Positions 7,775 through 41,710 of a stretch of 64,000 bases of DNA are shown one piece after another. Source of the stretch: Malacoraja senta. Its lineage: Eukaryota. A model generated the notes under the pieces. The model ran no database searches. It was not told the DNA's origin and worked only from the letters and a program-made list of their open reading frames with translations. Position numbers and translations under genes: made by a program. The stretch covers positions 27,034,001 through 27,098,000 of the forward strand of contig CM075988.1 in the NCBI GenBank assembly GCA_038087875.1. Reading direction: 5' to 3'. How positions within the stretch are numbered: position 1 is the stretch's first letter; every line of letters starts with the position of its first letter.

Positions 7775-7992
7775 AGACACAAAGTGATGGAGTAACTCAG
7801 CAGGTCAGGCAACATCTCTGGAGAGCCGGGTCATTCCGGGTCGGGGCTCTTCCTCAAAATGAATGAAGATGGATCCTAAAGCGAAATGTCACCTATCCAT
7901 GTTCTCCAGGGATGCTGCCTGACCTGCTAGGTTACTACAGCATTTTGTGTCTTTCCTTGGTGAACCAACATCTGCAGTTCCTTGTCTCTACA
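7775..7992 (+). mobile_element. Palindromic non-autonomous element related to the Penelope 3' end (degraded)
   Basis: Inverted arms agacacaaagtgatggagtaactcagcaggtcaggc / gcctgacctgctaggttactacagcattttgtgtct, followed by a ccaacatctgcagttcctt tail. Confidence 0.8.
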
Positions 7993-8880: not shown

Positions 8881-9114
8881 TAGACACAAACATCTGGAGT
8901 AATTCAGCGGGACAGGCAGCATCTATGGAGAGAAGGAATGTGTGACGTTTCGGGTCGAGACACTTTTTCAGACAGATCAAATGAGTCTGAAGAAGGGTCT
9001 CAACCCGAAACATTACCCATTCCTTCTCTCCAGAGATGCTGCCAGTCCCGCTGAGTTACGCCAACTTTTTGTGTCTATCTTCAGTTTAAACCAGCATCTG
9101 CGATTCCTTCCTAC
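8881..9114 (+). mobile_element. Palindromic non-autonomous element (inverted duplication of a Penelope-like hammerhead-bearing end)
   Basis: Arms ~8881-8971 and ~8983-9078 are reverse complements. The right arm plus tail resembles Penelope end 41581-41710. Confidence 0.88.
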
Positions 9115-9539
9115 AGAAAACAGTATGTGATTTTTTTGCAAAGCTAACATCTCACTTTAAGTTAATGCTGACATTATAAGTTAAATGGGCATCAAGAGAT
9201 GAAATGACATTGCACAGTAGTCACTTCAACAGGCATTTCCAAATGGATTGTCAGGTGTGAAGTTGGGAAAACAATGGATTCTACCTGTGAAACATGATCC
9301 CACTCCTTGTTAGGTCTCTAATTGATGACAGATGGGTCTTGAACAAAACACAACAGAGACGATCTCCAACATGCTGCCTGTGAAGCCGACATTGGCACAA
9401 AGTAGCTGTTGGATGTGAATGAGACACTGGGGCAGATGCCAGACATTTCCCCACGGAACTGTGGGGGGAAAGTCAACACAATTAATACAACTGCTTTTTT
9501 CCCCATGTAGATCACCACACTTGCTTCATGTATGGTGAA

Positions 9540-9690
9540 AGAAAGCTGCCCCTAAAAGCATTCTATTTCCATAGTCACACTGGATAATGAGCCAAGAATT
9601 TGCACTCAACTCTCTGCAGTACAACGTCAACCAATGTGATTCTGACTCAGATGTGAGGGTTTTGCCAGCTGAACCACAAACAGTTGCATG
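9540..9690 (-). mobile_element. Ancient SINE remnant (possibly Deu-domain/SacSINE-like)
   Basis: tRNA-like head gtggttcagctggcaaaaccctcacatctgagtcaga, followed by weak resemblance to the Deu core as I recall it. Confidence 0.35.
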
Positions 9691-10654
9691 GACTTCTCTG
9701 CGAAGGATGAAAGGAAAATACATGCTCCTCTAAAACAAACTAGTTGAACTACATCCAATTCTCCCTCAGTTGGCTGAGTGACCTCTGGGTTGGACTGTGA
9801 TGCAGCTGTGACTTTGGGCACTGTATTGAAGTTGTAAGATGAATTTAAACTTCCAGGAAAGTTTAAGATACTTTCAACAATTGCAATCATTTACTTTATT
9901 GACATATACTTTCTTCCTCCTGTACAAAGAGAGAGGCATATTGATAAAAATATGGGGAAAATTAAAACTGATCTGGAGTTGCTTGTATCCTCAGTATGTA
10001 CAGAATCTGACCATTCCCTGTGGGACTGGATTAAACAGCACTTTGCCTTAACTTGTTTCTCATATTTTCTGGCAGCGGGTCCCGTTCTTTATAACCAATT
10101 AAATTGTTTTAAGGGTCACAATTCTGAACAATATTCCAGATTCAAGAGTTACTCCTGCATGATAAAATGAGCCTTGGTATGATTGGCTGCATTTTAAACA
10201 GGTGAAAGAAGATTGCTTGCATACAGCAAACAGCCCAATGGCTCCACATGTCATGTTAAACAATATTTGGACTGATACATGGATAGGAAAAGTTTACAAG
10301 GAAATTTGCTGAATTCAGACAAGTGAGCCTAGCTGAGATGAAGCGTTTTATCGACATGGACAAGTTTGGCCGAAGGTCTGGTGTCCATGCTGGATGACTC
10401 TGTCAGATCAGGCTAAGAAATGACCAGCAAACTGAGTTTCAAATCAACATCAGCAACATGATGGGAATTAAGTTCCTTGTCTGGGCTTTGAGGTTTGGGT
10501 CACAGGTTTGCAATTTCAGTGAGGTGATTAGCTATCAGCCATTACAGCTGGGAACAGAAGAGGTTCAGGGTCATAAGTGACTTGGAAAAAGGGGGAAACA
10601 TGAAAGCAATTGGAGGGCAGTGACAGAGAAGGCCATCAACGTGGATAACCAACA

Positions 10655-11466
10655 ATAAATGTGAGGTTATCCACTTTGGTGGCAAAAACAGGAAAGTAGA
10701 CTATTATCTGAATGGTGGCCAATTAGGAAAAGGGGAGATGCAACGAGACCTGGGTGTCATGGTACACCAGTCATTGAAAGTAGGCATGCAGGTACAGCAG
10801 GCAGTGAAGAAAGCAAATGGTATGTTAGCATTCATAGCAAAAGGATTTGAGTATAGGAGCAGGGAGGTTCTACTGCAGGTGTACAGGGTCTTGGTGAGAC
10901 CACACCTGGAGTATTGCGTACAGTTTTGGTCTCCTAATCTGAGGAAAGACATTCTTGCCATTGAGGGAGTACAGAGAAGGTTCACCAGACTGATTCCTGG
11001 GATGGCAGGACTTTCATATGAAGAAAGACTGGATAGACTCGGCTTGTACTCGCTAGAATTTAGAAGATTGAGGGGGGGATCTTATAGAAACTTACAAAAT
11101 TCTTAAGGGGTTGGACAGGCTAGATGCAGGAAGATTATTCCCGATGTTGGGGAAGTCCAGAACTAGGGGTCACAGTTTAAGGATAAGAGGGAAGTCTTTT
11201 AGGACCGAGATGAGAAAATCATTTTTCACACAGAGAGTGGTGAATCTGTGGAATTCTCTGCCACAGAAGGTAGTTGAGGCCAGTTCATTGGCTATATTTA
11301 AGAGGGAGTTAGATGTGGCCCTTGTGGCTAAAGGGATCAGGGGGTATGGAGAGAAGGCAGGGATGAGATACTGAGTTGGATGATCAGCCATGATCATATC
11401 GAATGGCGGTGCAGGCTCGAAGGGCCGAATGGCCTACTCCTGCACCTATTTTCTATGTTTCTATGT
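10655..11466 (+). mobile_element. Young CR1 LINE, 5'-truncated 3' portion
   Basis: Near-identical to 4895-5694; ORFs 10738..11106 and 11111..11374; (tttctatg) tail. Confidence 0.95.
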
Positions 11467-11499
11467 GGGGAATTGACCATGATTAAACAATGGTGGAGA

Positions 11500-11732
11500 A
11501 TGGGGAATTCTGCCAAAGAAGGCTGTGGGGGCCAAGTCAGTGGATATTTTAAGGCAGAGATAGATAGATTCTTTATTAGTACGGGTGTCGAAGGTTATGG
11601 GGAGAAGGCAGGAGAATGCGGTTGGGAGGGAGAGATAGAAATACCATGATTAAATGGTGGACTCGACGTTGGGCCGAATGGCCTAATCCTACTCCTACTC
11701 CTATTCCTTATGACCTTATGACCTTATGACCT
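11500..11732 (+). mobile_element. CR1 3' end of a second family with (cttatgac)n tail
   Basis: GYFKAEIDRF..GVEGYGEKAG remnant, gggccgaatggcct hairpin and an 8-bp tail repeat. Confidence 0.82.
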
Positions 11733-12890
11733 CAAAGGGGGTCTTGGGACATAAACTGTGTGAAAGAGAGCTGATAAGAAGGGAATTATGTTAGCAATCA
11801 AGAGATCATAGATATTAATATGTATTTGTGTATTGTTGGCTTATAACAGAGTAACATCTTGTTACCTGCCATATTGAAGGATTAGATGGCTGTCATGCTT
11901 AAATAACAGCAAAGTTGTCATGCCAATTCTAGCCTGTGTACCAACTCACCGCACATTCAGCCTGATCGGTTTCATGTTGACAGTAATGTTACCAGATGCT
12001 TTTGTGTAGCCTTGGGATCTAAGATAAGGTTACTTGGAGGTTGGTGCCAATGTTGACCTACGTTCTGACCACCGAGACTTTGCATATTTCCTGCTTTGCT
12101 TTGGGCAATGGATTCGTTCAACTGCTTACTGTTCGGCACCATCACCTCATCTAAATACCTGTAACTACAACGATATCTTGGAGCTGAGAGCTACAAAGTC
12201 AACCCTCATGGTCTCAACTCAAACTCTTGTAGCCGAGAGCATTTATATCAAAAACACATTCACCCTGCTCCCCTCAACTGTTGAAATAAAATGCTCAAAA
12301 ATATACTGAAAAATATATATATTTTAAGACATCTTTGCTTTGATACAAATAAATAAACGGTGCTTTTTGCACATAGAACAGTACAACACAGAAACAGGCT
12401 CTTCGGCCCATAATGTTTGTTCCAAACATGGTGCAAAGTTAAACTAACATGGTGACATCACCATCACTTAATTGTGTTCACAATATTTTCACCTTAAATT
12501 CTCAACAACGGTCAAAAGGGAATATTAACATGCTAGGCAGTACAAAAATTCCTCAGGCATCTCAGGTAATTATAAATAGCTATACATACATTACTCTCTG
12601 AATGCATTGAGAAGTTTGCTTGACTTTATTTACTCTATCAAATGGAACACCATAATACCCAAATGGATGGGTAAGAATCCAATTACTCTGTTTTACCAAT
12701 GATGCATAAAGCTCTGCTCTAAATTAGACTATTAAAATGTGACTACAACGTGATGGCTGAATATTCTTCATTAAAGTGAACTAATATCCTATTCCCCTTT
12801 GAATAATGTTTCCAGCATTTCATGTTTTGATAGCATTCTGTGAATTTGAGGAGATGATTACACCAGAAAGACATATCCACAGCCACTAAT

Positions 12891-13075
12891 GCGGCACAAT
12901 GGTGCAGTTGGTGGAGCCTGCTGCCTCACAGCCCCAGAGACTTGGTTCAATCCTGACCTTGGGTGCTGTCTGTGTGGAGTTTGCACGTGCTCCCTGTGAT
13001 CACGTGGGTTTCCTCTGGGTGCTTCGGTTTCCTCCCACATCCCAAACTTGTGCGGTTTGTAGATTAATTGGCCTC
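12891..13075 (+). mobile_element. tRNA-derived V-SINE (HE1-like)
   Basis: A box ggtgcagttggtgg, B box ggttcaatcc, and V-domain gtgtggagtttgcacg...gggtttcctc...ggtttcctcccacatccc. Confidence 0.85.
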
Positions 13076-13530
13076 TCCCCCCCCCCCCCACCTCTCTCTT
13101 TCTCCCCCCACACACAATAAGACCGATGTATTCTGCTTAGTCTCTCTTCCCTCCCACACACACAGATAGACCGAGGCCCTGTGCGCTCTTTCTCTCCCCC
13201 CCACAGTCACGCCGAAGTACACCACACTGCCTCTGTGCCTCTCTCTCTCTCTGTCTCTCTCCCCCTCTCTCCTACATACACAGTCAGAGGTCCACACTGT
13301 CTCTGTGTCTCTCTCTCCCCTACACACACACACACAGACCGAGGTACACACTGCCCGTTGTGTGTGTGTGTCTGCCTCTGTCTCTCTCCCACACACACAG
13401 TTAAAGGTACTCCACGCTGCCTGTGTGTGTGTGTCTCTCTCTCTCTCTGTCCCACCCCCCACACCCACACACAGTCAGTCAGTCAGAGGAACTCCACACT
13501 GTGTGTGTGTGTGTGCCTCTGTCTCTCCCT
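13075..13530. repeat. Low-complexity (CT)n/(CA)n/(TG)n mosaic upstream of the putative first exon
   Basis: Repeated ctctctctccc-cacacacacag blocks. Confidence 0.8.
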
Positions 13531-14290
13531 ATCACAGTCAGAGTGAGATACTCCCCCCGCAGTCTCTCCACGGCCTCTCCCCGGGCAGGGTGCATCTGCC
13601 TCCCTCAGGCTGCCCAGGCAGTCAGACACGACTCCGGTGGCGGGCTGCATGCACAGCTCCTGCCGGCCGGCTGGGAGTGGCGATGGAGGACAGGGGGAAG
13701 TTGGCCACCAGCGGGGCAGTCTCGGCTCTCCATGCAGTCCGAGTCTCGCTGGATCCTCGTAATCCTCTGCCTCTGTCAAATGGGTGAGTTTAACCTGACC
13801 CCCCCCCACCTCCCCCCCAACCTCCCTCCACCTCAACTCACGCCTGGGCACCAAAGCAGCTCAGGAGGCGAACCCTGAGCTCCGTCTCCCAACAATCTGA
13901 TGTGCGCATCCGTGCACATTCAAAGATTCCATCTCCAGTCTCCCCGCAGTGTGTAGACCTGGCAGTAAATTCAATTAAAATATAGCAAACCTCCGCCTGC
14001 TGGTCTTCTAACTACGTGATGTGTGTTTCAAACAAATCATCAGTATAACTGCCCTGGCACTGGACGGTGCGCATTTTCCCTTTGTAGGTCACATCAATAG
14101 ATGCGGCCGCGCTGAATTCTATCTTTAACTCAAAGCCGCAGGATGGAGATGTTGCTTATTAAAACAGACCTTCATTGAAGGTTGGCTCAAGAGTAACTCG
14201 GGAAAGGAACTTGTTAACTCGGGAGACGAACTTGGAACATCGCAGAAATTACAGTTAACGGCAAACTTGAGTCATACCCGTGGGAACTCG
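13530..14290 (+). promoter_or_regulatory. CpG-enriched promoter / first-exon region
   Basis: Locally high GC and CpG (ccggccgg, gcggccgcg) in non-repeat sequence, flanking the signal-peptide exon. Confidence 0.55.
13732..13783 (+). CDS. Probable first coding exon encoding a signal peptide (MQSESRWILVILCLCQM + 1 nt); secreted or membrane protein, possibly KIRREL/Ig-superfamily-like
   Basis: ATG at 13732, hydrophobic core WILVILCLC, and a consensus donor G|GTGAGT at 13784 giving a phase-1 intron, all in a CpG-rich context. No downstream exon was recognised in the window. Confidence 0.6.
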
Positions 14291-15021: not shown

Positions 15022-15160
15022 GTTATCGTATTTACAGTTGTTTATATCCAGCTATTCGAAGTGAACAGGGTGGTATCTAATTTGGCTCAGTCCACTTGCT
15101 CGAATAACTCATTGGATCATTAGCTCATTGGTGTCGAGCTGAGAACAAAACACCACTCTT

Positions 15161-16787
15161 ACACTCTCCGTCATCTCCGCGCATTCCACTCTCTAGGCCC
15201 TCACCCCCTCATCTTCACCATGGACGTCCAGTCACTGTACACCTCCATCCCCCACCAGGATGGTCTCAAAGCCCTCCGTTTTTTCCTCGACCGTAGAAGC
15301 AATCTATACCCGGCCACTGACATCCTCCTCCGCCTAGCGGAGCTGGTACTTACACTTGATAACTTTTCATTTGACTCCTCCCATTTCCTCCAAATACAAG
15401 GCGTAGCTATGGGCACACGCATGGGCCCCAGCTACGCCTGCCTCTTTGTCGGGTACGTAGAACAATCCTTGTTCAATGCGTACCAGGGCCCCATCCCCGA
15501 CCTCTACCTCCGCTACATCGATGATTGTTTTGGTGCCACATCCTGCACCCACACACAACTGACTGACTTCATCCGCTTCACCACCAACTTCCATCCGGCA
15601 CTCAAATACACCTGGACCATTTCCGACACTTCCCTACCATTCCTTGACCTCACCATCTCCATCGCAGGTGATAGACTCCTTACCGACATCCACTACAAAC
15701 CTACCGACTCCCATGGCTATCTGGACTACACTTCTTCCCACCCTGCTTCCTGTAAGGACTCCATCCCCACTCCCAATTCCTCCGTCTACGCCGCATCTGC
15801 TCCCAGGATGAGGCGTTCCACACCAGGGCATCTGAAATGTCCTCATTCTTCAGGGAACGGGGGTTCCCCTCCTCCACCATAGATGAGGCTCGCACCAGGG
15901 TCTCTGCCATACCCCGCAACACTGCTCTCTCTCCCCATCCCCCCACTCACAACAAAGGCAGAGTCCCCCTAGTCCTCACCTTTCACCCCACCAGCCGTCA
16001 CATACAACAAGTGATCCTCCGTCAGTTTCGCCACCTCCAACGTGACCCCACCACTCGCCACATCTTCCCATCTCCCCCTATGTCTGCCTTCCGCAAAGAC
16101 CGCTCCCTCCGTAACTCCCTTGTCAATTCTTCCCTTCCCTCCCATACCACCCCCTCCCCTGGTACTTTCCCTTGCAACCGCAAGAGATGCAACACTTGTC
16201 CCTTCACTTCCCCCCTCCACTCCATTCAAGGACCCAAGCAGTCGTTCCAGGTGCGACAGAGGTTCACCTGCATCTCCTCCAACCTCATCTATTGCATTCG
16301 CTGCTCTAGATGCCAGCTGATCTACATCGGTGAGACCAAGCGGAGGCTTGGCGATCGTTTCGCCGAACACCTCCGGTCGGTCCGCAATAACCAACCTGAA
16401 CTCCCGGTGGCTCAGCACTTCAACTCCCCCTCCCATTCCGTATCTGACCTCTCTGTCCTGGGTCTCCTCCATGGCCACAGCGAGCAACACCGTAAATTGG
16501 AGGAAATGCACCTCATATTCCGCTTGGGCAGTCTACATCCTGGTGGCCTGAACGTTGAATTCTCCCAATTCTGCTAGCCCTTGCTGTCCCCTCCCCTTCA
16601 TCAGCCATCTGGTTGTCTCTTCCCCTCCCCCAGCCCTCGGGCTCCTCCTCCGCCTTTTCCTTTTTTCCTTTCTTCTCCCCACCCCCTATCAGTCTGAAGA
16701 AGGGTTTCGGCCCGAAACGTTACCTATTTCCTTCGCTCCATAGATGCTGCTGCACCCGCTGAGTTTCTCCAGCATTTTTGTGTACCT
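15161..16787 (+). mobile_element. Penelope-like retroelement copy 1 (5'-truncated; RT C-terminal half + GIY-YIG), 12-bp TSD
   Basis: ORFs 15220..15882 (GVAMGTRMGPSYA, YLRYIDD) and 15837..16577 (LIY...YIGET). A 1-bp deletion at ~15766 separates them. TSD accactcttaca at 15152-15163 and 16788-16799. Confidence 0.95.
16691..16724 (+). ncRNA. Minimal hammerhead ribozyme motif in the Penelope 3' end
   Basis: CUGAAGA-A-GGGU(UUCG)GCCC-GAAAC-GUU|AC. Confidence 0.7.
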
Positions 16788-17614: not shown

Positions 17615-18740
17615 CACATGGGAGGCTGCTCTTGATCGCATGGGATCCAAGGAGAGATAGCTGAATGGATAGAAAATTGGCTTCATGGAAGCAGAGGGTG
17701 ATGGTGGAAGGTTGCTTCTCAGACTGGAGGCCTGTGACGAGTGGTGTGCCTCAGGGTTCGGTGCTGGGCCCGTTACTGTTTATCATCTACGTCAATGATT
17801 TGGATGAGAACATACAGGGCAAGATTAGCAAGTTTGCAGATGATACAAAAGTGGGTGGTTTTGCAAATAGTGAAGATGGTTGTGAAAGATTGCAGCAGGA
17901 TCTGGATCGATTGGCCATGTGGGCTGAGGAATGGCTGATGGAATTTAATACAGAGGAATGTGAGGTGTTGGATTTTGGGAAGTCTAAAATGGGCAGGACC
18001 TTCACGGTGAATGGTAGGCCTCTGGGTGGAGTTCTAGAGCAGAAGGATCTAAGAGTAGAGGTGCATGGTTCCTTGAATGTCGAGTCGCAGGTAGTTGGGG
18101 TGCTAAAAAAGGCATTGGCCTTCATCATTCAGAGTATTGAGTACAGAGGTTGGGAGGTCATGGTGCATTTGTATAAGACATTGGTGAGACCGCATTTAGA
18201 ATATTGTGTTCAGTTCTGGGCACCATGTTATAGGAAAGATGTTGTCAAGGTGGAAAGGGTACAGAAAAGATTAACGAGGATGTTGCCAGGACTAGAGGGC
18301 ATGAGTTATAGGGAGAGGTTGAGTAGGCTGGGTCTCTATTCATTGGAGCACAGGAAGATGAAGGGTGATCTTATGGAGGTGTATAAAATCATGAGAGGAA
18401 TAGATTGGGTAGACGCACAGAGCTTCTTGCCCAGAGCAGGAGAATCGAGGACCAGTGGACATAGGTTCAAGGTGAAGGGGAAAAGATTTAATAGGCATCT
18501 GAGGGGTAACTTTTCACACAAAGGGTTGTGGGTGTATGGAACAAGCTGCCAGTGGAGGTAGTTGAGGTAGGGACTATCCCAACATTGAAGAAACAGTTAG
18601 ACAGGTACACAGATAGGACAGGTTTGGAGGGATATGGACCAAATGCGGGCAGATGGGACTAGTTTAGCTGGGACATGTTGTTCGATTTGGGAAGGTTGGG
18701 CGAAGAGCCTGTTTCCACGCTGCATTTCTCTATGACTCTA
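17615..18740 (+). mobile_element. CR1 LINE (older family), RT C-terminus and 3' UTR
   Basis: ORF 17665..18561 with SGVPQGSVLGPLLF, KFADDTKVGG and RPHLEYCVQFW; ctatgact tail. Confidence 0.93.
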
Positions 18741-20400: not shown

Positions 20401-21402
20401 ATATGATTTCTCCAGCTTCTTTGGAACAGTCAGAAAGTCACAAAGGCGCATGGCGGGGAAGATAACCAAAATCTCAGGGCCACATTTGTGTACTGAACCT
20501 GATTGTTCAGTTCCGATCATCCAAACTCTGACTATAAGAAGAGCACTGAAGTCCATAGATTGAGATTACTGGATCACTGAGGATTCTACTAGAGAGAATG
20601 TCCTGGTATTTAAAGCTGCTAATGCATTATCTGATCATGAAGTCATTTAGAAAATAAAGAAAAAGGTTCTGTGTATTTCAGTTGTCAGTCATATCTCTCT
20701 GCCTCTTCTGGGCCAACTTGGCCTATTAAATGTCAGGGCAATTACACTGAGCGGTAAACTAATCTTCCCGAAGCTTCATCCAGTCTGCTGCGACTGCTGC
20801 TTTTTCCATTTGGCATGGCTCTGTGCCCATGTGCATTAGATCCAATTCTGGAGTCCCTCATTGATCATGCAGAACTAAAACATTGCCCTTTGTTTTCTCC
20901 AATGTCTTCTCATGGATTAGATTTGCTTCAGCTAAGAATGGTCTGATCCATCAATATCATTCACCCAACTACAACCTCCACCTAACACTGCCAACTCTTG
21001 CCACTCTAGTGCCGGAGAGGGACATCAAGTGGAATATTAAACTGAGTAACAGGTTCATTAGCTCCATACTTTATATCAGCTCCAGACATTTACTTCATTC
21101 ATTCACGGGCTGCAATGTCACAGGTGACACTGGGATTTAGTGCCCATCCTTATATACTACTCATAGAAAAAAAAATAGTAAGATTAAACGAGAACTTACC
21201 AGTTTGAAGTTTGATCTTTATTTTATGAGGAGTTACGTTGGTGATTACGTGAAGAACCCCGCCAGTGCGCCTGCGCGTCAATCTTCGAAGCAGCGGTGTG
21301 AAATCACAAAAAACAAAAACGAAGTAATATAGTAATATAATAAAACGAGTAATTCAAGAACTTCCATCTGACCTTCATGATAGAGGGTTGGGTCGTGGTG
21401 GG

Positions 21403-21514
21403 CACGTAATCACCAACGTAACTCCTCATAAAATAAAGATCAAACTTCAAACTGGTAAGTTCTCATTTAATCTTACTATTTTACTTCGGAGTCACGTGAG
21501 TGACTACGTGAAGA
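21403..21514 (-). other. DIRS internal complementary region (ICR), a copy of the circle junction
   Basis: 77/78 match to the reverse complement of 21174-21251 and 37/37 to that of 32573-32609; the two halves overlap at ATT 21478-21480. Confidence 0.92.
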
Positions 21515-21689
21515 TTTTAAAGCTTTGTGATTTCATGCCGCAGATACAAATCCCGGCTTCTCACTGCATTGATTGACTCGGAACGAGAAATAATCAATAA
21601 TGCATTAATAATGACATTTGCATGACAAATGCAGTAATTCATTTATTTGAATAAAAGAATTAACAGTATCCCCTTTAACTCAGGGAAAT

Positions 21690-22700
21690 TTAAGCAGAAC
21701 TTAATATAGTATCTGCAAACAGCCCCGTATTGGCAATAGGCCGATGGTAAAAGTGTTGAAACACCAACTTATTGGATCACCTGTGAAAATATGGTCGATG
21801 GGACGTTCTTCGCCCTGGTCGTCAATGTTGCTGCTAAACTGAATGGAATGTAAAACCATCAATGTTCACACCTGCAGCAACCAAAACTTGTTTTTAACCA
21901 TCTTAAAATAGTCTGGACTGACACTATCTTGTATGGTTTTTCGTGAATGATAAACAATCTTGTTTTCATATTTCATAAGACCTTTGTAGCCTCAATGTAT
22001 TGCAACAAATATGTCTTAACATATAGACATGGATCCATAGAATATGCTAATAAAACACTCTTGAATCCTATCACACCTGATCCTACATCATTTGAGTAGG
22101 TCATAAAATGTAAAACATAACATAATCCTGAGGTACTTCCATCCTGTGTATCTGTAACTTTTGTAATGTTACAAGTGCCATAAGCATGACTACCTTCATG
22201 CTGAACTTGGCCAAATCAGAATCGTACCAAGACTCCATTGAAGAAGTAGCTTAAAACAACTCTATATTCCAGATTCCCTCCTAGGTTTAGAAGGTCTGGA
22301 ATTAAAATTCCTTTCATTAATCTGGAAATAAAAGAACGAGACTCAACAGGATGTCTTTCCAACCTCATCAATAAAAAACGAGGAATAATATACTTCTGTC
22401 TGAATAAATCGCACTATAACTCAACCCCTTAAATAGAGGTAAATCCAAGACATTTGAGACATGTGCCGTACAACATTCCATATTCTTTTATACACAGAAA
22501 ATTTTTCCCCTCATTCTTTACATAATGGGAAAGCAGCATTTACAGTCACAACTCAGATTCACAAATGTATTGCTTTTGAGTACTCTTCCGCCAGACTGCT
22601 GTAACCATGTCCACAGCATGCCCAGACAATCCTCTTTTTTAAAACCTGCAAATTCACAGATCCATACAGGCATATGACGGATGTTACTCTCCAATTATCG
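21690..22700 (-). pseudogene. DIRS tyrosine recombinase (frameshifted)
   Basis: Manual translation gives DMVTAVWRKSTQKQY near the N-terminus, then SVQTILRWLK..VLVAAGVNIDGFTFHS, VPIDHI and FQHFYHRPIA. Confidence 0.85.
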
Positions 22701-24300
22701 AATACACCAGTAACTTCCTTCTTTTGGGAACATTTATCAGAAACTGTGTCATAAATTTCAATATCAAAGGGAACCACGTAGACCCGTCTGGTACCACGAA
22801 TACCCCAGAGGCAGCATACTGCTTCATTTTAAGCAGACACCGGTTTATGAGACAGGATGATTTAAAATGCATATAAAAACATACCATCCTAATGTAGCGA
22901 GAAACATCCATCGCTACTGTCTCCCGATGTAGTCCCATAACACATATCTCTGTAACTGGTGATTGAGTCTGGATGGAAACAAGTCATATCTAGCTTCCCA
23001 AATCTGACTATTATATCATTAAAATCTTAAGGTTCAACATCCATTCTTTGTTATCATGGAAATTCCACCCATACAATTAATACATGCCATTGCTGCAGTG
23101 TTGTTAATTTGAAACTGAACATGCAGATTAGTTGTATTTAACAACAAGTTTGTAGCTCATAAGCCTTCCAATAGCTGTAAAACGTGTCTCCATGTCTGCA
23201 AAATAATACTTCTTCCATATTCCATCTGTCCACAGATGGATACCTTTTCAGTGGCACCAATCCTAGTACACTGATGTCAGTCTGTTAAGACCATGGAAGG
23301 CTGTTCAATCCGTATCTTGCTTGAACTACTGAAGACATGTTAAATCCACTACTGCAATCAGAAGCAGCATTTGTTGTTTAACTGCATGGCCTATCAAAAA
23401 ATGGCCACCATGCATCCTAGTGTTTTTTTTTCTTTTTTGCAGTCTGCAGCTGCTGGTAGTCCAATGGCCCAAATTGTATTGCTGGAAATAACACTAATTC
23501 TCCTAACAAGTTGGCCACCTGTCTTAATTGAAGATTGTTGCTTTGCCAACCGCTTAATACAACCATCAATTAGCTTTACCCTTTACCCTGGGTAAATTAC
23601 TACCCTGTCTGGATGAATTAAACCCAACTTTCAAAAGTGATTTGAATAATTTGAGAGAGATAACTCACTAATTCTCTTGTTCGTCCTAATTAGGACATCA
23701 TCCAATTAAGCCATCCACATCTGTCCTTGGACTCTAATTAGCCCCAAATTGGTTTTACCAATTTAGTGAAATTCTAGGAACTGAAGTTAACCCGTTTAGA
23801 CAGAACTTTGAATTGCCATAATTGTTCCTTCAGATAATTGTTAAATATTTTTATCTTACAAATGAACAAACACTAAGTAATATACATCTTTCAGATCTAT
23901 AAGTGCCATAAAATATATTTTTTGAAATAAATTGTTTGGCAGTCTCAAAGTCTCCATTTTGAAGTGTCTATACTTCACAAAATTTTAAAGACTTGTCAGA
24001 TCTAAAATACTCCTCACCTTTTTAGGTTGAGAAATTTTAAACACAATTTGGTGGTTTTGATAAACCAACCTTTCAATTACTTGTTTATAAACAAGTTTTC
24101 AATTCAGCTTGAACCTCCATCAATTATTTTTATGTGAAATTGGAGTGTTCTGCTTGGAACATGCTGGATGGCAAATCAGTATTTGAATCGAATCAATTCG
24201 AAACCTTTCTATAATACTCAGAATAATAACTGAAGTAATTTGCTTCCAATATTTGGCTGTTTTTGCCTTAATATGTTCCCATAAGAACCAGGTCTACCTA
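22700..24300 (-). pseudogene. DIRS pol (RT / RNase H / Dam-like methyltransferase), decayed
   Basis: Manual translation: ILDLTSL..FVKYRHFKMETL, MALIDLKDVYY, NGLTSVPRI, MA*LDDVLI (YLDD mutated), and MT-like DLFPSRLNHQLQRY...LYAF. Confidence 0.85.
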
Positions 24301-25615
24301 CCTCCTTTGTCATCTGAGTGACCTGTGGTCCCTGGCTCCTGGCAGGCAAAACCCACGCTTTTTCGTTTTCCTGCTGCAGGACATCAACTGTGCACCTGCT
24401 TCAATGGTCGATTTGATCCTGATGTCGGTCCAGGATTTTGTATGATGTCTGAAAGGATACGTCCTCTTTGCAGACTTGACGACCATTGATGTTGTGATCA
24501 ACTTTGCTGTTTTTGCCTCATCATCCAACTCTTTCCCACGTTTCATGAGGTTTTTTCTCTGAAGAATAAGTTGAATGACTGCACATTGCTGGGCTTTACA
24601 GAGTTGCTGCAACTTTGGGTTGATGGTGGACCGAATGGCATACTTCCTGAAACAATTTATCTCGAAGTGGGCGCTACAAAGCAACCTTAGTGCCACTTGA
24701 TGCATCTCCATCCCTGGCCTCCATCCAATGTATTGTTTGTTTAAATTGCCCCTCGGGGACAAATAAAGTGCTTGGTAATTGGTAATTGGTAACAAAATTG
24801 TTTTGCCAATTGCAGTTGTTTATCAACCCAGCAGCTTCAATATTCTCTGCAGTTTACTTTCCTTAGGCTTACATGCCTTCGCCCATTTGACGCCTTATAT
24901 CTTGGTTCACTGTTAGTACTTTCAGCAATACGTAGTTCCTTGGGATATCGTGCTTTTTTGGCATTTTCATCCATCGTAAGCTACTAGAGCTGATGGAAGA
25001 CACAATAGTTGATCACAGAGGCCACTTCCTTTCCCAGTGGCTCTCCTGACTCTGACTGGGCAGCGAATCGTACTGCCAGGAGTAAACATCTGGCAGCTGC
25101 CGTCTTCGCTTGTATCGGCCTCACCGTCAGGGTCAGAACTCTCACAGAGCAGCAAATCGTACTGCCAGGAATAGCCCATCTGGCAGCTGCCGTCTTCTTT
25201 TTTTTTATTTTTTTATTTTTTTTATTTTTTTATTTTTTAGAAGTACGGTAGATTACAGTAATGTACAACACGTATATATTAATACATTTTTTGTACCGCT
25301 TCACTTTTTTAAACTTTAAGAAAGAAAAAGAAAGAAGTAAGAAAAGTGAAGAAAGTGCACAAAGGTTGTGAAGTGCAAAAGAGTGTTGGGAAAAGAAAGC
25401 CCCTTAGAAAAGAAGTTAGAGAAGGAAGTAAAGTTAGAAAATAGACCCTAGAAAAAAAAAGAGAAAGAAAGAAGGAACAATCGCTCTATTATAACTCTTA
25501 TACCATACTTCATAGAGAAGGAACTACCAACCAAGTCTGTTTTTATTTTACCTCCCATTACCAGGTCCAGATACCTTTTATTTATTTATTTGTTTTTCTA
25601 AATTACTATTGCACC

Positions 25616-28600
25616 TCATGCTTGTAATAGGTCCAAAAACGTAGACCACGTCTTTTGAAATTGATCTACTTTGCCTACTAGGAGGAATCTCATCTCTTCC
25701 AGATGTAATGTTTCCAACATATTTGATGTCCACATTTTTATTGTTGGTGTGGGCGCATTTTTCCAGAATTTAAGTATAAGCTTTTTTCCCATTATTAGCC
25801 CATAATTGAGTAAATTCTTCTGATACACGTTTAATTCAGGAATACCTTCCGATATTCCAAAAATAATCCATTCTGGTTTTGGTACCAGTTTTATTTTGAT
25901 TAATTTTGAAAAAATATCAAATATTTCAAACCAGAATTTTTGGATTTTTGTACAAAAAACAAAAGAATGTGCTATGGTAGCTTCTTGACATATACATTTA
26001 TCACAGATTGGTGAGACGTTAGGAAAGATTTTATTTAGTTTGGTTTTTGAATAATATAATCTATGTAATGTTTTAAATTGGATAAGCGTATGTCGTACGT
26101 TGATCGAGCATTTATGCACCTGTAATAAATGATTATCCCAACTCTCTTTTGAAATTTTTATACCTAGATCTTGTTCCCAATCTCTTCTAATTCCATCTGT
26201 TGTGGGTATTTCTATATTTAAGATGATATTATATAAGTATGATATTAAATTAACTGATTCCGCCTTTGTCTTCATTGCTTCATCTAGTAAGTCGGAAGGC
26301 ATATTATAATAATCTTTTGTGTGTGTTTTCAAATAGTCACAGATTTGTAGATATTTAAAATATTGATTATTTTTCAAATTATATTTCAGTTGTAGTTGTT
26401 GGAATGATAGTAATTTTTCTAATTCATACAGATCTTCGAGCGTTTTAATTCCCATTCTTTCCCATTGTATAAATGCTTTATCTATGATTGAAGGTTTAAA
26501 CGATGGGTTATTGACTATTGGTATTAAGAGAGATAGGTTTCTTAATTTTAGATTCTGTTTTATTTGCTTCCATGTTCTAATAGTGCTATATATAATTGGA
26601 TTTTTATTATAATTTTTATTATTCAAATTTATTGGAGAGAGAATAATCGCTCCTATATTATTCGGGGAGCAATCCCCTTTTTCCATTATAATCCAGTCCA
26701 CCTGCTGGGCAGAATTGTCCAGCAGGTGAATCATATTTTTAATATTTACTGCCCAGTTATAATACATAAAGTTAGGGAGCGCTAGACCCCCCAACTCTTT
26801 TCGTTTGTTAAGGTGTGTTCTTTGTATTCTGTGGGATTTGTAATCCCATATAAAATTTGTAATGTCTGAGTCCAGTTTTTTGAAAAACTTTTTTGGGAGA
26901 TATATAGGTATTGATTGAAATAGGTAAAGGATTTGTGGTAAGAAAATCATTTTTATAGCATTTATCCTACCTATTAAGGACATCGGAAGTGTTTTCCAAA
27001 ATTTAATCAGATTATTTAATTTCTTAAGTAGGGGATTATAATTAGCTTTAAACATATCATGGTAATTTCTAGTAATCTCAATTCCTAAATATTTGAATTT
27101 TTCCATAGCTATTTTAAAAGGGAATTTCCTGAGATGTGTTGAGTCTTTTGGTTTAATCGACATAATTTCACTTTTGTTCCAATTTATTCTATATCCTGAA
27201 AAGGATCCAAAGTCCTCAATTAAGTTTAATATATTTGGTATACTAATTTGTGGTTTTGTGATGTACAGTAGTACATCATCAGCATATAGGGATAGTTTGT
27301 TGTTTGAATATTTTGTGTTATAACCGTGAATATTCGAGTGTGTTCTTATTTTTTCAGCAAGGGGTTCAATTACCAAAGCAAATAACAGCGGTGATAGTGA
27401 ACATCCTTGTCTGTTGCCCCTAGATAATTCGAATTTTGAAGATAATATATTATTAGTTAGTATTCTAGCCGTAGGTTTGTTATATAGTAGTTTTATCCAT
27501 GCAATAAAGTTTTCTCCCAATTGGAATTTTTGCAATACTTTGATCATATAGTCCCATTCTACTTGATCAAACGCTTTTTCTGCGTCCAGTGAGATGATAG
27601 CTAACTCTTGGTCATCAGATTTATGTGAATGCATTATGTTAAGCAAACGTCTCAAATTATTAAATGAGTGTCTCTTAGGTATAAATCCTGTTTGATCCTC
27701 ATGTATTAGTCTACTAACATACTTGCTTAATCTATTGGCTAATGTTTTTGCTATTATTTTCTGATCCGTATTTAACAAAGCAATAGCTCTATATGATCCT
27801 GGTTCTTCTATATTTTTATCTTTTTTAAGTATTAATATGATCGTTGATTCCGCTAGTGTTTCAGGTAGGTTTTGCTCTTTATAAGCATATGTATACATTT
27901 TTTGTAATCGTGGAGTAACTATATCATAAAAAGATTTATAAAATTCATTACTGAATCCGTCTGGTCCTGGTGTTTTTCCATTTTTTAGTGTTTTTATTGT
28001 GTCTTCTATCTCCTTAGAAGTAATTTGTGCTCCCAGTTCCTCTTGTTCCCTGCGTTCTAATTGTGGTAGATTACAATTATCTAAAAATTCTGAGATTTTA
28101 TTATTGTCTATTGACGTTTTAGATGTGTATAGATTCTGGTAAAATTGAGCAAATCTTTTATTAATATCCTTGGGTAGTGTTAATACTTCCCCTCTATCTG
28201 ATTTAATCTTTAATATTGCATTCTCTTTTTCCCGTTTTTTAAGTTGTCGTGCTAGAAGTTTGTGGGGTTTGTCCCCGAATTCGAAGTGTTCTTGTTTTGT
28301 GATTTGAAATAATGTTATAACTTTCTCTGACAGTAATTTATTTAACTGAAATTTCAGTAGTAGTATTTTATTATGTTTATCCATAGTTGGGTCTTTAGCA
28401 TTATCTATATCTAACTGTTTTATTTGATCTTCTAAGTGTCTTTGTTCATTCTTATTCTTTTTATTTTGATAAGCTTGAAATGAAATAATGACTCCTCTTA
28501 TAAATGCTTTGAAGGATTCCCATAATAACGTGGGGGATATCTCTGGTGTATCATTTAACTCAAAAAATAGATCCATCTGTTTTTTTAGATAGCTACTCCC

Positions 28601-29408
28601 TTGAGGGTCTTTTAAAATTTGTGAGTTAAACCTCCAGAACGGTTTATTCATAGACATTCCTTCTAGTTTTAGAACAAAAGTTAACGGAGAATGATCTGAG
28701 ATCGCATTAATATGATATTTAGGATTCAGAGATTGCGAAATTAATTTTGTATCCACAAGAAAATAGTCTATCCGTGAATATGTTTTATGCACCATTGAAT
28801 AAAACGAGTAATCCCTTCCCGTCGGGTTTGCAATCCTCCATACATCTGTTATATTTGTGTTTTCCATATATGTGTGTAAGAGTTCACTGGTTTTAGATTT
28901 CGTCTGACCTTTTTGTTTTTTGCATCGATTTATCTAAATAAGGATCTAAAACACAATTAAAATCTCCTCCGATTATAACATTTTGATAATTAGATTCTGC
29001 AATTATATTCAGAATTTTATTAAAAAATTGAGGGTTATCAAAGTTGGGCGCATATATGTTTACCAGCGTAATTGGCATATTATTGATCTCCCCTGCTACT
29101 ATAAGATATCTCCCTTCCTTATCTAAAATAGTGTTCTTTGATTTAAATGGAATTCCTTTACGAATAATAATTGCAGTACCTCTAGATTTGGAGGTAAATG
29201 AAGAGTGAAATGTTTGGCCTATCCAGTTCGCCCTCAGTCTTGTCTGATCTTGCTGTTTAAGATGTGTTTCCTGTAGAAACGCAATGTCCGTGTTGTATGA
29301 TTTCAACTGAGCTAGTATCTTGCCCCTTTTAATAGGTTCATTAATCCCCCTTATATTCCAACTACATAATGTGATTCCTCCTATTTTCTTTTGATTGTCG
29401 TCATGCAT
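25616..29408 (-). CDS. L1 ORF2p (APE endonuclease-RT-CCHC), split by one +1 frameshift at ~28910
   Basis: SWNIRG, QETH, NIYAPN and GGDFN in 28893..29408. SRIDY, SDH, RQGCSLSPLLF, YADD and CDKC..HSFVFC in 25616..28867. The span is 3793 nt = 1264 codons + 1 nt. Confidence 0.92.
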
Positions 29409-30626
29409 TTTTACCAGTTTTAATGACCTTAATTATTGTGGTGCGTTCATACCTCTGGACTCTGGTTATTTTGGGAGTATTTCTATTATAGACTTCCTTG
29501 GTAGTTCTCCTGCGCGATTGTCCTTGAAGAAAAAACACACAGATGTGACATATTGTGATTAAAAAAAATATATATAAATCAAATAAATTTACGGTGTCTA
29601 AAATTTCAACACCGTAGTGAGTGGCCCACTCGTCTGTGGGGTACGACATCCATAACGCTTCCGGCGTAGTTGGTATAAAGTTAGCCCCGCTGTATTTATT
29701 ACCCAAAATCTATGGGGTCATTACCGTTTCCAATTCAGTTCTATTTCACCCAGTTACAATTTATATATATGTCAAATGTATTCGATTCCATATCCTACTC
29801 ACTCTTTATCTCTTAACTATTTTAAAATGAATTTAGTATTGTTAAAGTGAGCGGTTTACTGAGTGGATTAATCGGAGTCAGGTTCCTGGAATTGTGCCAG
29901 GTGCCTGATCTCCTCTCCTCTCCACGAGCTGCGAACATAGGTGATAACTGCTGTCTGCGTTATGACGCAGGCACCACAGTTTTATCAGTTTCAAATATTA
30001 TTTCTATATTAGTATTGTTAATTATTAATTATGATTAATTCTCAGCATTTTGTAAAACTATATAAGCCGTATATATTTTTCATATCAACCTCGAGTGTAT
30101 ATTATCTCTTAACTATTTTAAATTGATTTTAATATTGTTAAAAATGAGCTGTTCGCTGGAAGGGTTAACGGGAGTCTGGCTCCTGGAGTTATGCCAGGTA
30201 CCCGGTCTCCCCCTCCCTCCACTCTCGAGCTGCATAGCACTTGCTGTTATCTGCTAAACAGAGCAGACTGCACATTTTTTATCTATTTCAATTGCTATTT
30301 CTATATTAGTATTGTTAATTGTTAATTATTATTAGTTCTCAGTTTTTTCAGTTTTTTATAAACAATATAAGCCATGTGATGTTTTTCACTCTCAGCCCAG
30401 CAGTTCGTCCCGTGTTATCAGGTTTTCCTCGTTTGAGCACGTAGTGTCCTTGAATTACATAGCACAATGTTCCAGCGAAGATAATAATGTCTAGCCACGT
30501 CTCACTAAGAATCTGTTGCTTGAAGTCAAATAAAAAATAAAAAATCAGTGTTCAGTTAATTCACTTTCCTTGTGATACTCTTGTTGGAAGAATAAGCAAG
30601 TTCGTTTGTTCCTGTCGTCTTGGTTT

Positions 30627-31622
30627 TCAATCTCCAGTTGATGCAGCCTTAGTCGCGATTTCTTGAGCGTATTTGAGAGATTCATCCGAATTAGTGAATG
30701 TTTTTGACACTCCCTCAAAGGTGATACGCATTCTAGCCGGATAAAACACTCCACACAAAACTCCCTTAACACCATAAAGAACTTCTCTGGTCTGTGAGAA
30801 CTTTCTTCTCTTTTGCTCAATCTCATAAGGGTAGTCCCGTAGGAGTTTAATAGTATCACCTCTGTACATCATCTTCTCTCCGTGGTTGATTTTTTTCATC
30901 AGCGCTTCCATTGTTGAGATATCCCGAAGTTTAATTATGATCTGTCGTGGGTAGGCACGTTCTCCTTGAGATCTTGATTTAAATCTGGGGAGTCGATGTG
31001 CTACTTCAATTACAGGTACTTCTGGTAGCTTCAGTACGTGTTTAATTAGGTTGGCAGCGAACTCACAAACATTGTCCCCCTCAGCTCCCTCTTTTACACC
31101 ACGTATTCTTATATTTTGGCGTCTTGAGCGAGCTTCTAGGTCAACACATTTATTCGAAACCTTTGTGACTTGGTTCTTGAGACTATCTATTTCTGACTTC
31201 ATAGTCTGCATCTCTCCAGCCATCACTTCCACAACAGCTTCCAAATCATTCACTGCAGATGCATTTGCAGCCACAGTTTCGTGCACAGCCTCAAACATCT
31301 TTGTGGTCTCTTCTGCCACCTTTTCAATTTTTATCGATAGTCCTTTTTCCACACCTTCAATTCTTTTTTGGAGAGCCTCAATACCCTCAAGTATTTTATC
31401 ATTACCGGCTATCAATTTACTGTTCCCAGCTTCCATATCATTTTTGATATCTCTTACCGAGTTTCTTAAGTCCTCCATTTCGGTTTTCTCTTTTGCAGAT
31501 CGAGTAGCCATTCCAGAGACCTCTCCAGAGGTCAGTTCTGAAGTTTCTTGCTGTTCCAGAGTCTTCAGCAGATGTTTTGAGATTTTCCTCTGTGGGCTCT
31601 GACCTGGAGATGTACTTTTCAT
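30627..31622 (-). CDS. L1 ORF1p (coiled coil + RRM + CTD), 331 aa
   Basis: Heptad-rich N-terminal half followed by DLEARSRRQNIRIRGVKE, AHR and YPA.MRI motifs. Confidence 0.92.
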   Translation of the reverse strand: MKSTSPGQSPQRKISKHLLKTLEQQETSELTSGEVSGMATRSAKEKTEMEDLRNSVRDIKNDMEAGNSKLIAGNDKILEGIEALQKRIEGVEKGLSIKIEKVAEETTKMFEAVHETVAANASAVNDLEAVVEVMAGEMQTMKSEIDSLKNQVTKVSNKCVDLEARSRRQNIRIRGVKEGAEGDNVCEFAANLIKHVLKLPEVPVIEVAHRLPRFKSRSQGERAYPRQIIIKLRDISTMEALMKKINHGEKMMYRGDTIKLLRDYPYEIEQKRRKFSQTREVLYGVKGVLCGVFYPARMRITFEGVSKTFTNSDESLKYAQEIATKAASTGD

Positions 31623-33927
31623 TTAAAATGACTTTCCCTCCGTTATAATCGCGGCGCTTACTGATGACGTCATCAGCACCGCGACATGAAGCTCCGGTAA
31701 GTTTTTAAAAACGGTCCCGACCTCCAGACCCGATTTTAACGCGAAAAATCGCGATTTTTTCAGCGGAGCTAAAAAGTTTGCGACTGCTAGCAGAGCATGT
31801 CGCAACCGGAAGTCGCAGCTGCCGTCTTCACTTGTTTTGGAAACTCTGCTGACCCTGTGCACGCGCCTCATCAATGAGGGTGCTATCAAGCAGCCCTTTA
31901 CTAGGTGCTGCTGACCTGGCTTCTGGAGCCTGGTTCTGACATCACTCCTCCTGGAGTATGTCTTGTTGGAGCAACCTGTGTACAGGTTCTCCATTTGGAA
32001 TATCCACTCAAAAAGTGGTATCCAGCCTTGGAGGTGAATCCCAAACTGACTCTTGCTCCATGGACCTGACTTGCATGTTGCCTAGCGCCCAACTGACGCT
32101 GGCTCCGTTCTTTTTCTTAATACACAAGTCCACAGTCGCCCCGCTCCCAGCTGGCGACTGTTATAGGGGTATGAGGCAGTCCTTTACCAACCGCATTCCC
32201 GCGGCTCTCTGTCAGCTTTGCGGCTTCGCCTTGCGCCCGACTGGTGCTGACTGCATTCATTTCAGCCCCAAATCCACAGTCGCTACGCTCTCCGCTGGCG
32301 ACTGTACCGGGGTCAGAGGCGGCTGGTCGCCGACCGCAATCTCACGACTCTCTACCGGCTGTGCCGCTCGCCTCCTCCCCTTGCCCGTTTTTTTCCATGG
32401 TGCCTGTGGAAAAAATCCCCACAGACCCATAGCCAACGGACACGGAAATTACGAAAAAAGTTTTAACTTACCTTGTAGTTCACAACTACATTTCCACTAG
32501 AGGAGCTCTGCTCCTCACGTCCGTTTGCGCCAATGCGTCTGACGTAATGACGCGCAGGCGCACTGGCGGGGTTCTTCACGTAGTCACTCACGTGACTCCG
32601 AAGTAAAATTCAGGACGCTACCCAGATTGGCTAAAGATGCCAGATTTCATTTCCAGAAAAAAACAAATAGGTATTTTGTCATGTTAATCCAGTAATCCCA
32701 TTATCACTATGACTGACTGCATTTTATAATTTTTTTAGATGACTTGAATTAAAATACACCAGGTGTTTATGATGTGATTCAAACATATCTCAGGGTCAAT
32801 AGGACCAACTGATTGCTGACACCCTTAACCACTACACACATACCCTATTTAAGTAAAATCAGAACGGTACAGTGTGCAGTGTGACAGGTAAAAGCACACG
32901 TTAAAATTGGGCGGACATCGGGACGAGGGAAATAACCAAGCCATTAACTAGTTCAGCACAAAACCTGGTAGGGAGATGATTTATTTTGAAAAAAAATGAT
33001 TGCTTCAAATCCCAATGTATTAAAGTCAAACATGACTTTTGTTTCCATTTGAGTCTCTGGCAGCACTAACCAGTTTTAGAGCTTGCAAGAATCGAGAAAA
33101 CTGTTTTAGGTTAGATGGGCTTGATCCATTTTTGTAGATTCACAAAGAGATTAAAATGAAAATATTCTGTGAATGCCATAATCACATGGTAGACTGAAGT
33201 AATTGTATAGAAAAAAACACAAAATGTTTGCAGTGGCTAAATGGTAATGATATAGCACAGTACTAAAGAGCAATGAATAATCACAATCCACGTGGCACTT
33301 GGGCTTCTGAATTGACCAGTTTGGTTTCGATTATAAAAAGCATTTCACAGCCTTTCCTACCCCTTTCAAAAGCCATCTTACATCTTTAAGCCTTAATTAT
33401 GACTATTGATGGGATAAATAATTCTAATGCTAGATGAGAGAGCAAGAAGATTAAAGGTTTCTTTGTTCAGTTCCAGTGGTTTTCCTCAGTAATGTATTTG
33501 ACACTATTTTATGTGAGACATATGTCTGCCTTAATTCTCCAAATGTTAGAATGCTTATATTATCCAAAACCCAAGTTCATCATCGTTGTTTCTGAAACTT
33601 TATCCTGCTATATCCAGTGATTACACTTCAATGTGTTTCAATAGCTGTCAAATATTTTTAAATTCCCTGGTGAAAGACAGCTGCTGTTACCACAACTTAT
33701 AATTATGATAGACTTGAAAGATTGCTATCAAATAAAACCAAACATTTTCTTGATACGAGAACCATTCCATTATGCTGTACTGTAAAATTAGCCTTAATTC
33801 AGAGGAAAATCTGGGACATAAAGCAGTTTAATGGAACATAAAAATAAAAGAATTGATCATTCTGAAAATGTCCAGTAGCTCAGAGAAAGTCATTGATTTT
33901 GCTGGGCAGGTAATGCTGGCCAAAAAA

Positions 33928-34396
33928 AGACACAGAGTGCTGGAGTAACTCAGCGGGTCAGGCAGCATCTGTGGAGAACATGGATAGGTGACATTTCAAG
34001 TTGGGACCCTTTCTTCAGACTGATTGTGGTGGAGAGGGAGAGATGGATGAGAAAGCTGGAAGAGAGGAGGGCAGGATAAAGCCTGACCCGAAACGTCACC
34101 TATCCAAGTTCTCCAGAGATGCTGCCTGACCCGCTGAGTTACTCCAGCACTCTGTGAAACGTCACCTATCCATGTTCTCCACAGATGCTGCCTGACCCGC
34201 TGAGTTACTCCAGCACTCTGTGAAACGTCACCTATCCATGTTCTCCACAGGTGCTGCCTAAGCCGCTGAATTACTCCAGCACTCTGTGAAACGTCACCTA
34301 TCCATGCTCTCCAGATGTGCTGCCTGACCCGCTGAATTACTCCAGCATTTTGTGTCTTCTTCTGTAAACCAGCATCTGCAGTTCATAGTGTCTACA
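33928..34396 (+). mobile_element. Palindromic Penelope-end-like element with the right arm amplified as 4 x 66 bp
   Basis: Left arm 33928-34021; units begin gaaacgtcacc at 34090, 34156, 34222 and 34288; tail ccagcatctgcagttc. Confidence 0.88.
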
Positions 34397-40530: not shown

Positions 40531-41710
40531 TCTCCATCGCAGGTGATAGACTCCTTACCGACATCCACTACAAAACATCCACTACAAACCTACCGACTCC
40601 CATGGCTATCTGGACTACACTTCTTCCCACCCTGCTTCCTGTAAGGACTCCATCCCCCACTCCCAATTCCTCCGTCTACGCCGCATCTGCTCCCAGGATG
40701 AGGCGTTCCACACCAGGGCATCTGAAATGTCCTCATTCTTCAGGGAACGGGGGTTCCCCTCCTCCACCATAGATGAGGCTCGCACCAGGGTCTCTGCCAT
40801 ACCCCGCAACACTGCTCTCTCTCCCCATCGCCCCACTCACAACAAAGGCAGAGTCCCCCTAGTCCTCACCTTTCACCCCACCAGCCGTCACATACAACAA
40901 GTGATCCTCCGTCAGTTCCGCCACCTCCAACGTGACCCCACCACTCGCCACATCTTCCCATCTCCCCCTATGTCTGCCTTCCGCAAAGACCGCTCCCTCC
41001 GTAACTCCCTTGTCAATTCTTCCCTTCCCTCCCATACCACCCCCTCCCCTGGTACTTTCCCTTGCAACCGCAAGAGATGCAACACTTGTCCCTTCACTTC
41101 CCCCCTCCACTCCATTCCAGGACCCAAGCAGTCGTTCCAGGTGCGACAGAGGTTCACCTGCATCTCCTCCAACCTCATCTATTGCATTCGCTGCTCTAGA
41201 TGCCAGCTGATCTACATCGGTGAGACCAAGCGGAGGCTTGGCGATCGTTTCGCCGAACACCTCCGGTCGGTCCGCAATAACCAACCTGAACTCCCGGTGG
41301 CTCAGCACTTCAACTCCCCCTCCCATTCCGTATCTGACCTCTCTGTCCTGGGTCTCCTCCATGGCCACAGCGAGCAACACCGTAAATTGGAGGAAATGCA
41401 CCTCATATTCCGCTTGGGCAGCCTACATCCTGGTGGCCTGAACGTTGAATTCTCCCAATTCTGCTAGCCCTGGCTGTCCCCTCCCCTTCATCAGCCATCT
41501 GGTTGTCTCCGCCCCTCCCCCAGCCCTCGGGCTCCTCCTCCTCCTTTTCCTTTTTTCCTTTCTTCTCCCCACCCCCTATCAGTCTGAAGAAGGGTTTCGG
41601 CCCGAAACGTTACCTATTTCCTTCGTTCCATAGATGCTGCTGCACCCGCTGAGTTTCTCCAGCATTTTTGTGTACCTTCGATTTTCCAGCATCTGCAGTT
41701 CCTTCTTTAA
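40531..41710 (+). mobile_element. Penelope-like copy 2 (5'-truncated), 17-bp TSD, longest 3' end
   Basis: ORF 40727..41467 is nearly identical to 15837..16577. TSD cactctcctttgtctcc at 40519-40535 and 41711-41727. Confidence 0.95.
41581..41614 (+). ncRNA. Minimal hammerhead ribozyme motif (Penelope copy 2)
   Basis: Identical to 16691-16724. Confidence 0.7.

Follow-up and report, generated by a model that had tools for sequence, protein, structure and literature searches.

Element structure and termini

How a retroelement whose genes are in ruins comes to carry almost perfect replication termini is the question raised by a DIRS1-type element of Malacoraja senta (assembly GCA_038087875.1, contig CM075988.1, positions 27,034,001 to 27,098,000; this whole stretch of 64,000 nucleotides is termed the window, and coordinates refer to it). 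Positions 21174-32609 on the minus strand hold a full-length DIRS1-type element, which is new by its way of life and not a new kind of element. The contrast between its ends and its open reading frames (ORFs) is far beyond chance, and the probable explanation is a full-length non-autonomous DIRS1 family that is dead in its coding sequences and copied in trans.

Without the nested L1 and one copy of its target-site duplication the element measures 4,804 bp, bearing out an earlier note on the window that had proposed a complete DIRS1-type element of 4.8 kb after L1 excision at these coordinates. The distance from the 5' end to the internal complementary region (ICR) is 4,463 bp and falls inside the range of eight relatives (4,238-4,803 bp), so the element is full length. 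The paired terminal repeats are identical at 149/150 positions, with the inverted terminal repeat (ITR) matching at 35/35 (21246-21280 against 32548-32582; 88.7% for the whole 62-nt ITR) and the ICR matching the 3' end at 77/78 (21403-21480 against 21174-21251) and the 5' end at 37/37 (21478-21514 against 32573-32609). The two ICR halves overlap at 21478-21480, the circle junction, and an ATT common to this junction and both ends extends to ATTTT, leaving the element ends uncertain by about two bases. The 35/35, 77/78 and 37/37 matches and the common ATT triplet had been given in the earlier note and were reproduced, its "left end" being the element's 3' end on account of the minus strand. No target-site duplication was found beyond ATT(TT) and the flanks were otherwise dissimilar. 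The characters of DIRS1-like elements are all present, namely ITRs with a 3' extension, a two-sided ICR, an NTT triplet, and a co-oriented reverse transcriptase (RT)-RNase H-methyltransferase (MT) and tyrosine recombinase (YR). The parts of the element, from 5' to 3', are:

32548-32609, minus strand: 5' terminus with divergent ITR (32583-32609) and conserved ITR (32548-32582), starting with ATT(TT)
31830-32547, minus strand: 5' untranslated region and presumed gag start, GC- and CpG-rich, with a 144-nt duplication at 32080-32373 (71%)
24589-25079, minus strand: gag core remnant with 2 frameshifts and 2 stops
22644-24266, minus strand: pol remnant (RT, RNase H, MT) with two long gaps and 21-24 lesions across alignment settings
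21693-22759, minus strand: YR remnant with 11-15 lesions across alignment settings
21403-21514, minus strand: ICR, of which 21478-21514 pairs with the 5' end and 21403-21480 with the 3' end
21174-21280, minus strand: 3' terminus with conserved ITR (21246-21280), divergent ITR (21220-21245) and a 46-nt right extension (21174-21219), finishing with ATT(TT)

The gag profile gave no match above shuffled scores in 31830-32547, and no second DIRS copy was found within the 64-kb window.

Identification of the genes and extent of their decay

Pfam returned no matches on the window's own DIRS frames (0/6 and 0/12 frames in two sets), and protein searches with the broken frames gave none among 3,343 and 1,394 candidates, nor did one further protein search with a frame other than the main recombinase frame. 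Viral contigs searched with the DIRS frames also gave no matches, and no metagenome contig contained the 22-nt ITR pattern. A DNA pattern from two RT motifs of the window, with a single match there and no match among 100 shuffles, retrieved at least 120 metagenome loci and 2 genome loci, and 26 long pol frames and 23 recombinase frames from these loci served as relatives. The frames tested, from four relatives, carry RVT_1, RNase_H, Dam or Phage_integrase. Profiles derived from the relatives match the window in order (best E 4.8e-25 for pol and 6.2e-11 for YR in a three-frame search), locating pol at 24266-22644, the recombinase at 22759-21693 and the gag core at 25079-24589, the last with a local score of 40.9 bits compared to 12.6-18.8 in 10 shuffles.

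The open gag, pol and recombinase frames of an autonomous element were not found, and the longest stop-free DIRS frame with a profile match is 169 amino acids (aa). Frameshift-aware alignment at three penalties counted 22-23 lesions in pol and 11-15 in the recombinase. The middle penalty gave 15-16 frameshifts and 6 stops in pol, where two gaps of roughly 22 and 42 codons also occur, and 10 frameshifts and 3 stops in the recombinase, which lacks the motif containing the invariant Arg (profile position 230). A stop lies directly before the LDD catalytic motif at 23706-23708, confirming the earlier description of YLDD mutated to stop-LDD within ruined RT, MT and YR genes that give no long ORF. 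Further mapped stops and frameshifts include those at 23985, 23583, 23340, 22684 and 21973. An independent profile (119/120 database proteins) found 21-23 pol lesions in nearly identical places, and 10/10 held-out intact relatives had 0 pol lesions. Under simulated neutral decay, assuming 0.15 indels per substitution, pol accumulated 6 (2-9) lesions at 2% and 14 (8-21) at 5.6%, and the count saturated at about 20-24 from 10% upward. The share of invariant residues kept among those aligned was 0.61 in pol and 0.58 in YR compared to 0.97 in intact relatives, a loss that would correspond, as a rough figure, to about 15% simulated neutral decay.

The terminal sequence is matched by four relatives (L031, L066, L006 and L044) at 74-85% over 52-101 nt covering the ICR and 3' terminal region; as their pol is only about 30% identical, this suggests that the sequence is a deeply conserved cis signal. 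Among the retrieved loci, L121:1-4877 and L122 are DIRS1 elements in contigs filed under bacterial metagenome-assembled genomes, L121 being almost wholly one element with ITR and ICR, and the protein P0092 likewise bears a bacterial label. The two contigs are probably host DNA binned by mistake.

Family size and age of the insertion

Contigs of two public runs (X1 and X2) were placed on the window at 85% likeness. Depth in the bins from 21942 to 25253 was 53,760-135,844 in X1 and 7,477-14,243 in X2, compared to 36.7 and 6.9 (X1) and 1.7 and 5.3 (X2) in the flank bins. Relative to the flank contig, the median over 24 listed sites was about 1,750-fold in X1 and 1,300- to 3,300-fold in X2, from which only an order of 10^3 copies is taken because summed depth is not a copy number. 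Unique flank contigs enter both ends with 0 differences, one of them reaching 24 bases into the 3' end; many copies thus stop at the element's termini while the flanks are single-copy.

Places where a substitution reached at least 15% of depth numbered 256 in X1, 222 in X2 and 271 in their union over 12.4 kb including the L1. Even if all 271 lay in the DIRS element they would amount to 5.6%, whereas about 720 would be expected in the DIRS element alone under 15% private decay. No more than about 5.6% therefore separates the element from the bulk of a family that is large (order of 10^3 copies), a distance too small to account for its ruined genes. Among the 40 of the 271 places that were listed, the DIRS element has 38 and the L1 has 2, as would fit a younger L1. 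None of these 38 falls in the middle-penalty stops or in the 281 paired terminal bases, the latter being not significant alone (0/281 compared to 37 elsewhere, with 21287 excluded as family-diagnostic; P = 0.27). An L1-free joint occurs among those listed, as a variant joining 25118 to 31841 at depths of 74 and 9.5. Other joints skip 73-88 bases of gag at 24727-24816 at depths of up to 1,837 (X1) and represent deletion variants within the family.

The single mismatch in 150 paired positions bounds the age of the insertion at no more than 1.6% per copy (95% bound), so that the near-identical ends place it within about 1.6% divergence. Had the copy decayed by 5.6% after insertion, 16 terminal mismatches would be expected (about 42 at 15%), and the probability of seeing only 1 is about 6e-7 at 5.6%. 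Three clocks can accordingly be read from the locus, with the ends at 1.6% or less, the distance to the family bulk at 2-5.6% and the coding decay at about 15%, and their disagreement is as predicted by the copying of a dead element with cis signals. Matching DIRS ends date the insertion and not the loss of function.

Retention of CpG at the ends had also been put forward in the earlier note as part of this contrast. The observed/expected ratio is indeed high at the ends (1.36 and 1.05) compared to the interior (0.31-0.34), and CpG-rich ends occur in most of eight relatives; however, 10/12 intact relatives are equally CpG-poor in pol (0.18-0.39). The CpG contrast is uninformative on decay and was rejected as evidence of it.

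Proposed copying in trans and alternative explanations

In the DIRS model, the ends are rebuilt in every cycle from the ICR and ITR and a circle integrates at a matching triplet. In the available text on Dictyostelium DIRS-1, the ICR is essential and RT acts in trans, as do probably the remaining proteins (PMC7192593). Together, ICR-based rebuilding of the ends and trans action mean that a dead element keeping its cis signals can be copied and will have matching ends. Under the favored explanation, an ancestor would have lost gag, pol and recombinase function long ago, and those descendants that retained the cis signals (5' region, ITRs and ICR) would have stayed transcribed and reverse-transcribed. 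The circle would be closed through the ICR and integrated at ATT(TT) by the proteins of another DIRS element with similar ends. With the ends rebuilt from ICR and ITR in each cycle, a fresh copy would match regardless of the ruin of its genes; the copy in the window would have inserted fairly recently and later been hit by the L1. The transcription, the helper and the order of events in this model are inferred. A coding-dead lineage copied in trans is what the earlier note had suggested, and it is supported by a family distance of at most 5.6% against about 15% coding decay and by 1 terminal mismatch against 16 expected; the opposite pattern, in which all lesions are private and the ends as diverged as the ORFs, was not found.

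The best surviving alternative, although unlikely, is occasional rescue, in which a competent or lightly damaged source made most copies and only this small ruined lineage was mobilized in trans, on one or a few occasions. It is itself a form of trans copying. X1 contigs with better-preserved motifs (at the loose ends 22169 and 22933, 5 contigs each) would fit such a source, as would several listed indels at mapped frameshifts, given that the indel table is a soft bound. The distance to the family bulk speaks against it, since the 271 or fewer substitution places in 12.4 kb cap that distance at 5.6%, at which 0/40 pol simulations reach 22 lesions and the invariant residues kept are 0.73-0.88 compared to 0.59-0.62 in the element.

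A quite improbable alternative is that the insertion is old and degenerated at its site, with gene conversion or hairpin repair keeping the ends alike. The ICR is only 151 bases from the 3' end, and the extreme abundance of the terminal sequence in the runs means that conversion donors exist; however, each of the three pairings is almost perfect, two spanning more than 4 kb (11 kb including the L1), and 15% private decay would not permit the short distance between the interior and the bulk of a large family. Weakest of all, and very improbable, is DNA-level multiplication through segmental or tandem duplications, a route proposed for a degenerate R2 in a stick insect, where the accessible text favors unequal recombination for full-length dead copies (PMC4370867), or an assembly artefact, to which several listed one-base indels could belong as errors in base runs: the single-copy depth in the bins just outside both ends shows no multiplication of the flanks, matching ends would not be regained by duplication, and the nested L1, whose coding sequence of about 4.8 kb has a single lesion, indicates that the assembly is not generally error-ridden.

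Several points weigh against a dead family copied in trans. The 15% decay figure depends on the reference, since with the narrower 119-protein profile, where the element keeps 72/117 invariant residues, the "invariant" share retained by 12 intact relatives from other clades is itself only 0.67-0.93, with distant clades at the low end; it is also a rough figure because the nearest intact proteins are only 33-34% identical to the element's remnants. Both runs come from one study, and the share of sampled 31-letter words found in them (0.53 and 0.49; n = 428, from the element's 3' part) is compatible with a distance of 2% to about 5%. Divergence from the element reaches 11% among the longest single-copy contigs, and the family hence comprises copies of differing ages. 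Lesion-by-lesion sharing is not readable from the 40/271 substitution, 12/18 indel and 12/2,265 loose-end rows listed; among these, a substitution touches 2/17 candidate stops, both on the strictest-penalty path, and indels coincide with about 5/26 mapped frameshifts, which may be private. The indel shares are deflated, with a presumably private L1 frameshift at only 20% and 44%, so that the indel table gives no firm bound and its use as a strict one was rejected. No intact helper with an open frame and no second full-length copy were seen in the contigs or the window, and no RNA run with the stretch turned up in a search that was aimed at DNA runs.

A pool of elements with compatible ends

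The terminal bins are far deeper than the interior (1.6 million and 529,000 in X1). At 21287 the element's letter has a depth of 58,800, equal to that of the family, and another letter has 1.96 million. A pool about 30 times deeper than the family thus shares the terminal sequence (21174-21330 and 32430-32609) and not the interior, with other DIRS families or short derivatives as candidates for its members. Loose ends at 21256 and 21394 (37, 39 and 18 contigs) show the same ends with different inner sequence, and those at 22169 and 22933 in X1 carry, by hand reading, recombinase and methyltransferase motifs lost in the element. The same runs therefore contain both relatives in better condition and a large pool whose ends are compatible.

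Whether a vertebrate genome here hosts a thousand-copy, still spreading, full-length DIRS1 parasite, with genes about 15% decayed and within a far larger pool sharing its ends, is evenly balanced. If so, DIRS1 proteins would have little cis preference in nature, the element would be constrained by length or internal RNA signals and not by coding, and its conserved parts would show where the cis signals for DIRS replication lie.

Nested L1 and genomic surroundings

The insertion within the element comprises:

25198-31814, minus strand: nested L1, not part of the DIRS element, with ORF1 open at 30627-31622, ORF2 at 25616-29432 with one frameshift, and a poly(A) tail
25183-25197, no strand assigned: first copy of the L1 target-site duplication, inside an 89-nt tandem duplication at 25049-25197
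31815-31829, no strand assigned: second copy of the L1 target-site duplication

The L1 target duplication is 15 bp, ORF1 encodes 331 aa, and the sole ORF2 frameshift lies in a T run near 28916, as in a young, nearly intact L1. The two ORFs are separated by a 1.2-kb spacer that includes a 297-nt duplication (29806-30388, 74%), and a 3' fragment related to the L1 lies at 46280-47054 (75%). The neighborhood of the DIRS element is ordinary and repeat-rich, including a 66-nt tandem array at 33906-34380 with an inverted copy adjoining, Penelope-like remnants with RT and/or GIY-YIG matches at 15124-16577, 40550-41467 and 49889-51337, and other LINE-like RT frames at 3071-5601 and 17665-18561.

Comparison with known systems

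Little is understood of DIRS replication, and a Dictyostelium assay is so far the only demonstration of trans action. A coding-dead family of the ICR type that is natural and high in copy number is evidence that the whole DIRS cycle works in trans in an animal, and comparison of family copies would reveal the cis sequences required. Surveys based on domains miss such families, as illustrated by the blank Pfam result on the element's frames. In the literature covered on non-autonomous DIRS elements, which did not extend to Repbase, Dfam and subscription journals, only TOC1 was directly stated to be one and no full-length ICR-type case was found; such a case may be catalogued in those sources. 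The accessible portion of PMC8498967 held nothing further on non-autonomous DIRS elements. Consensus sequences of Xenopus DIRS are degenerate in 36/75 and 13/20 families, with no claim of trans mobilization in the text seen, and some of these families may be the same phenomenon (PMC9210276).

By structure, the element resembles the short-ITR DIRS1-like LgDIRS1, LgDIRS3 and AcaDIRS1 in the order gag, RT-RH-MT, YR and in ATT at both ends, according to the part of the paper available (Piednoel et al., 2011, PMC3266345). The divergent ITR, conserved ITR and right extension measure 27/35/46 nt in the element compared to 35/31/48 and 30/36/49 in short-ITR DIRS1 elements (Table 3 therein), the ICR 37+78 compared to 39+86 and 42+86, and the total length 4.8 kb compared to 4.7-5.1 kb. 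A 10-nt motif reported there as common to both ITRs and both ICRs is matched in three places and over 6 nt in the fourth. Unlike those elements as described in that part, the three genes are ruined, the ends intact and the family large.

TOC1 of Chlamydomonas has split direct repeats (PAT type) and not ITRs with an ICR. It is likewise a non-autonomous member of the DIRS order and shows copy-number variation, as far as the available text reports (PMC9940879). R2Br-deg of Bacillus rossius is similarly a full-length, degenerate retroelement in many copies, but its cis signal (a ribozyme) is lost and DNA-level amplification is favored in the sections available (PMC4370867), whereas the element in the window has intact cis signals and unique flanks. 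Restoration of the ends through the ICR is shared with Dictyostelium DIRS-1 (Malicki et al., 2020, PMC7192593), for which the accessible text describes a laboratory helper/donor test with a truncated element, in contrast to the Malacoraja senta element, where a natural family appears to live in this way.

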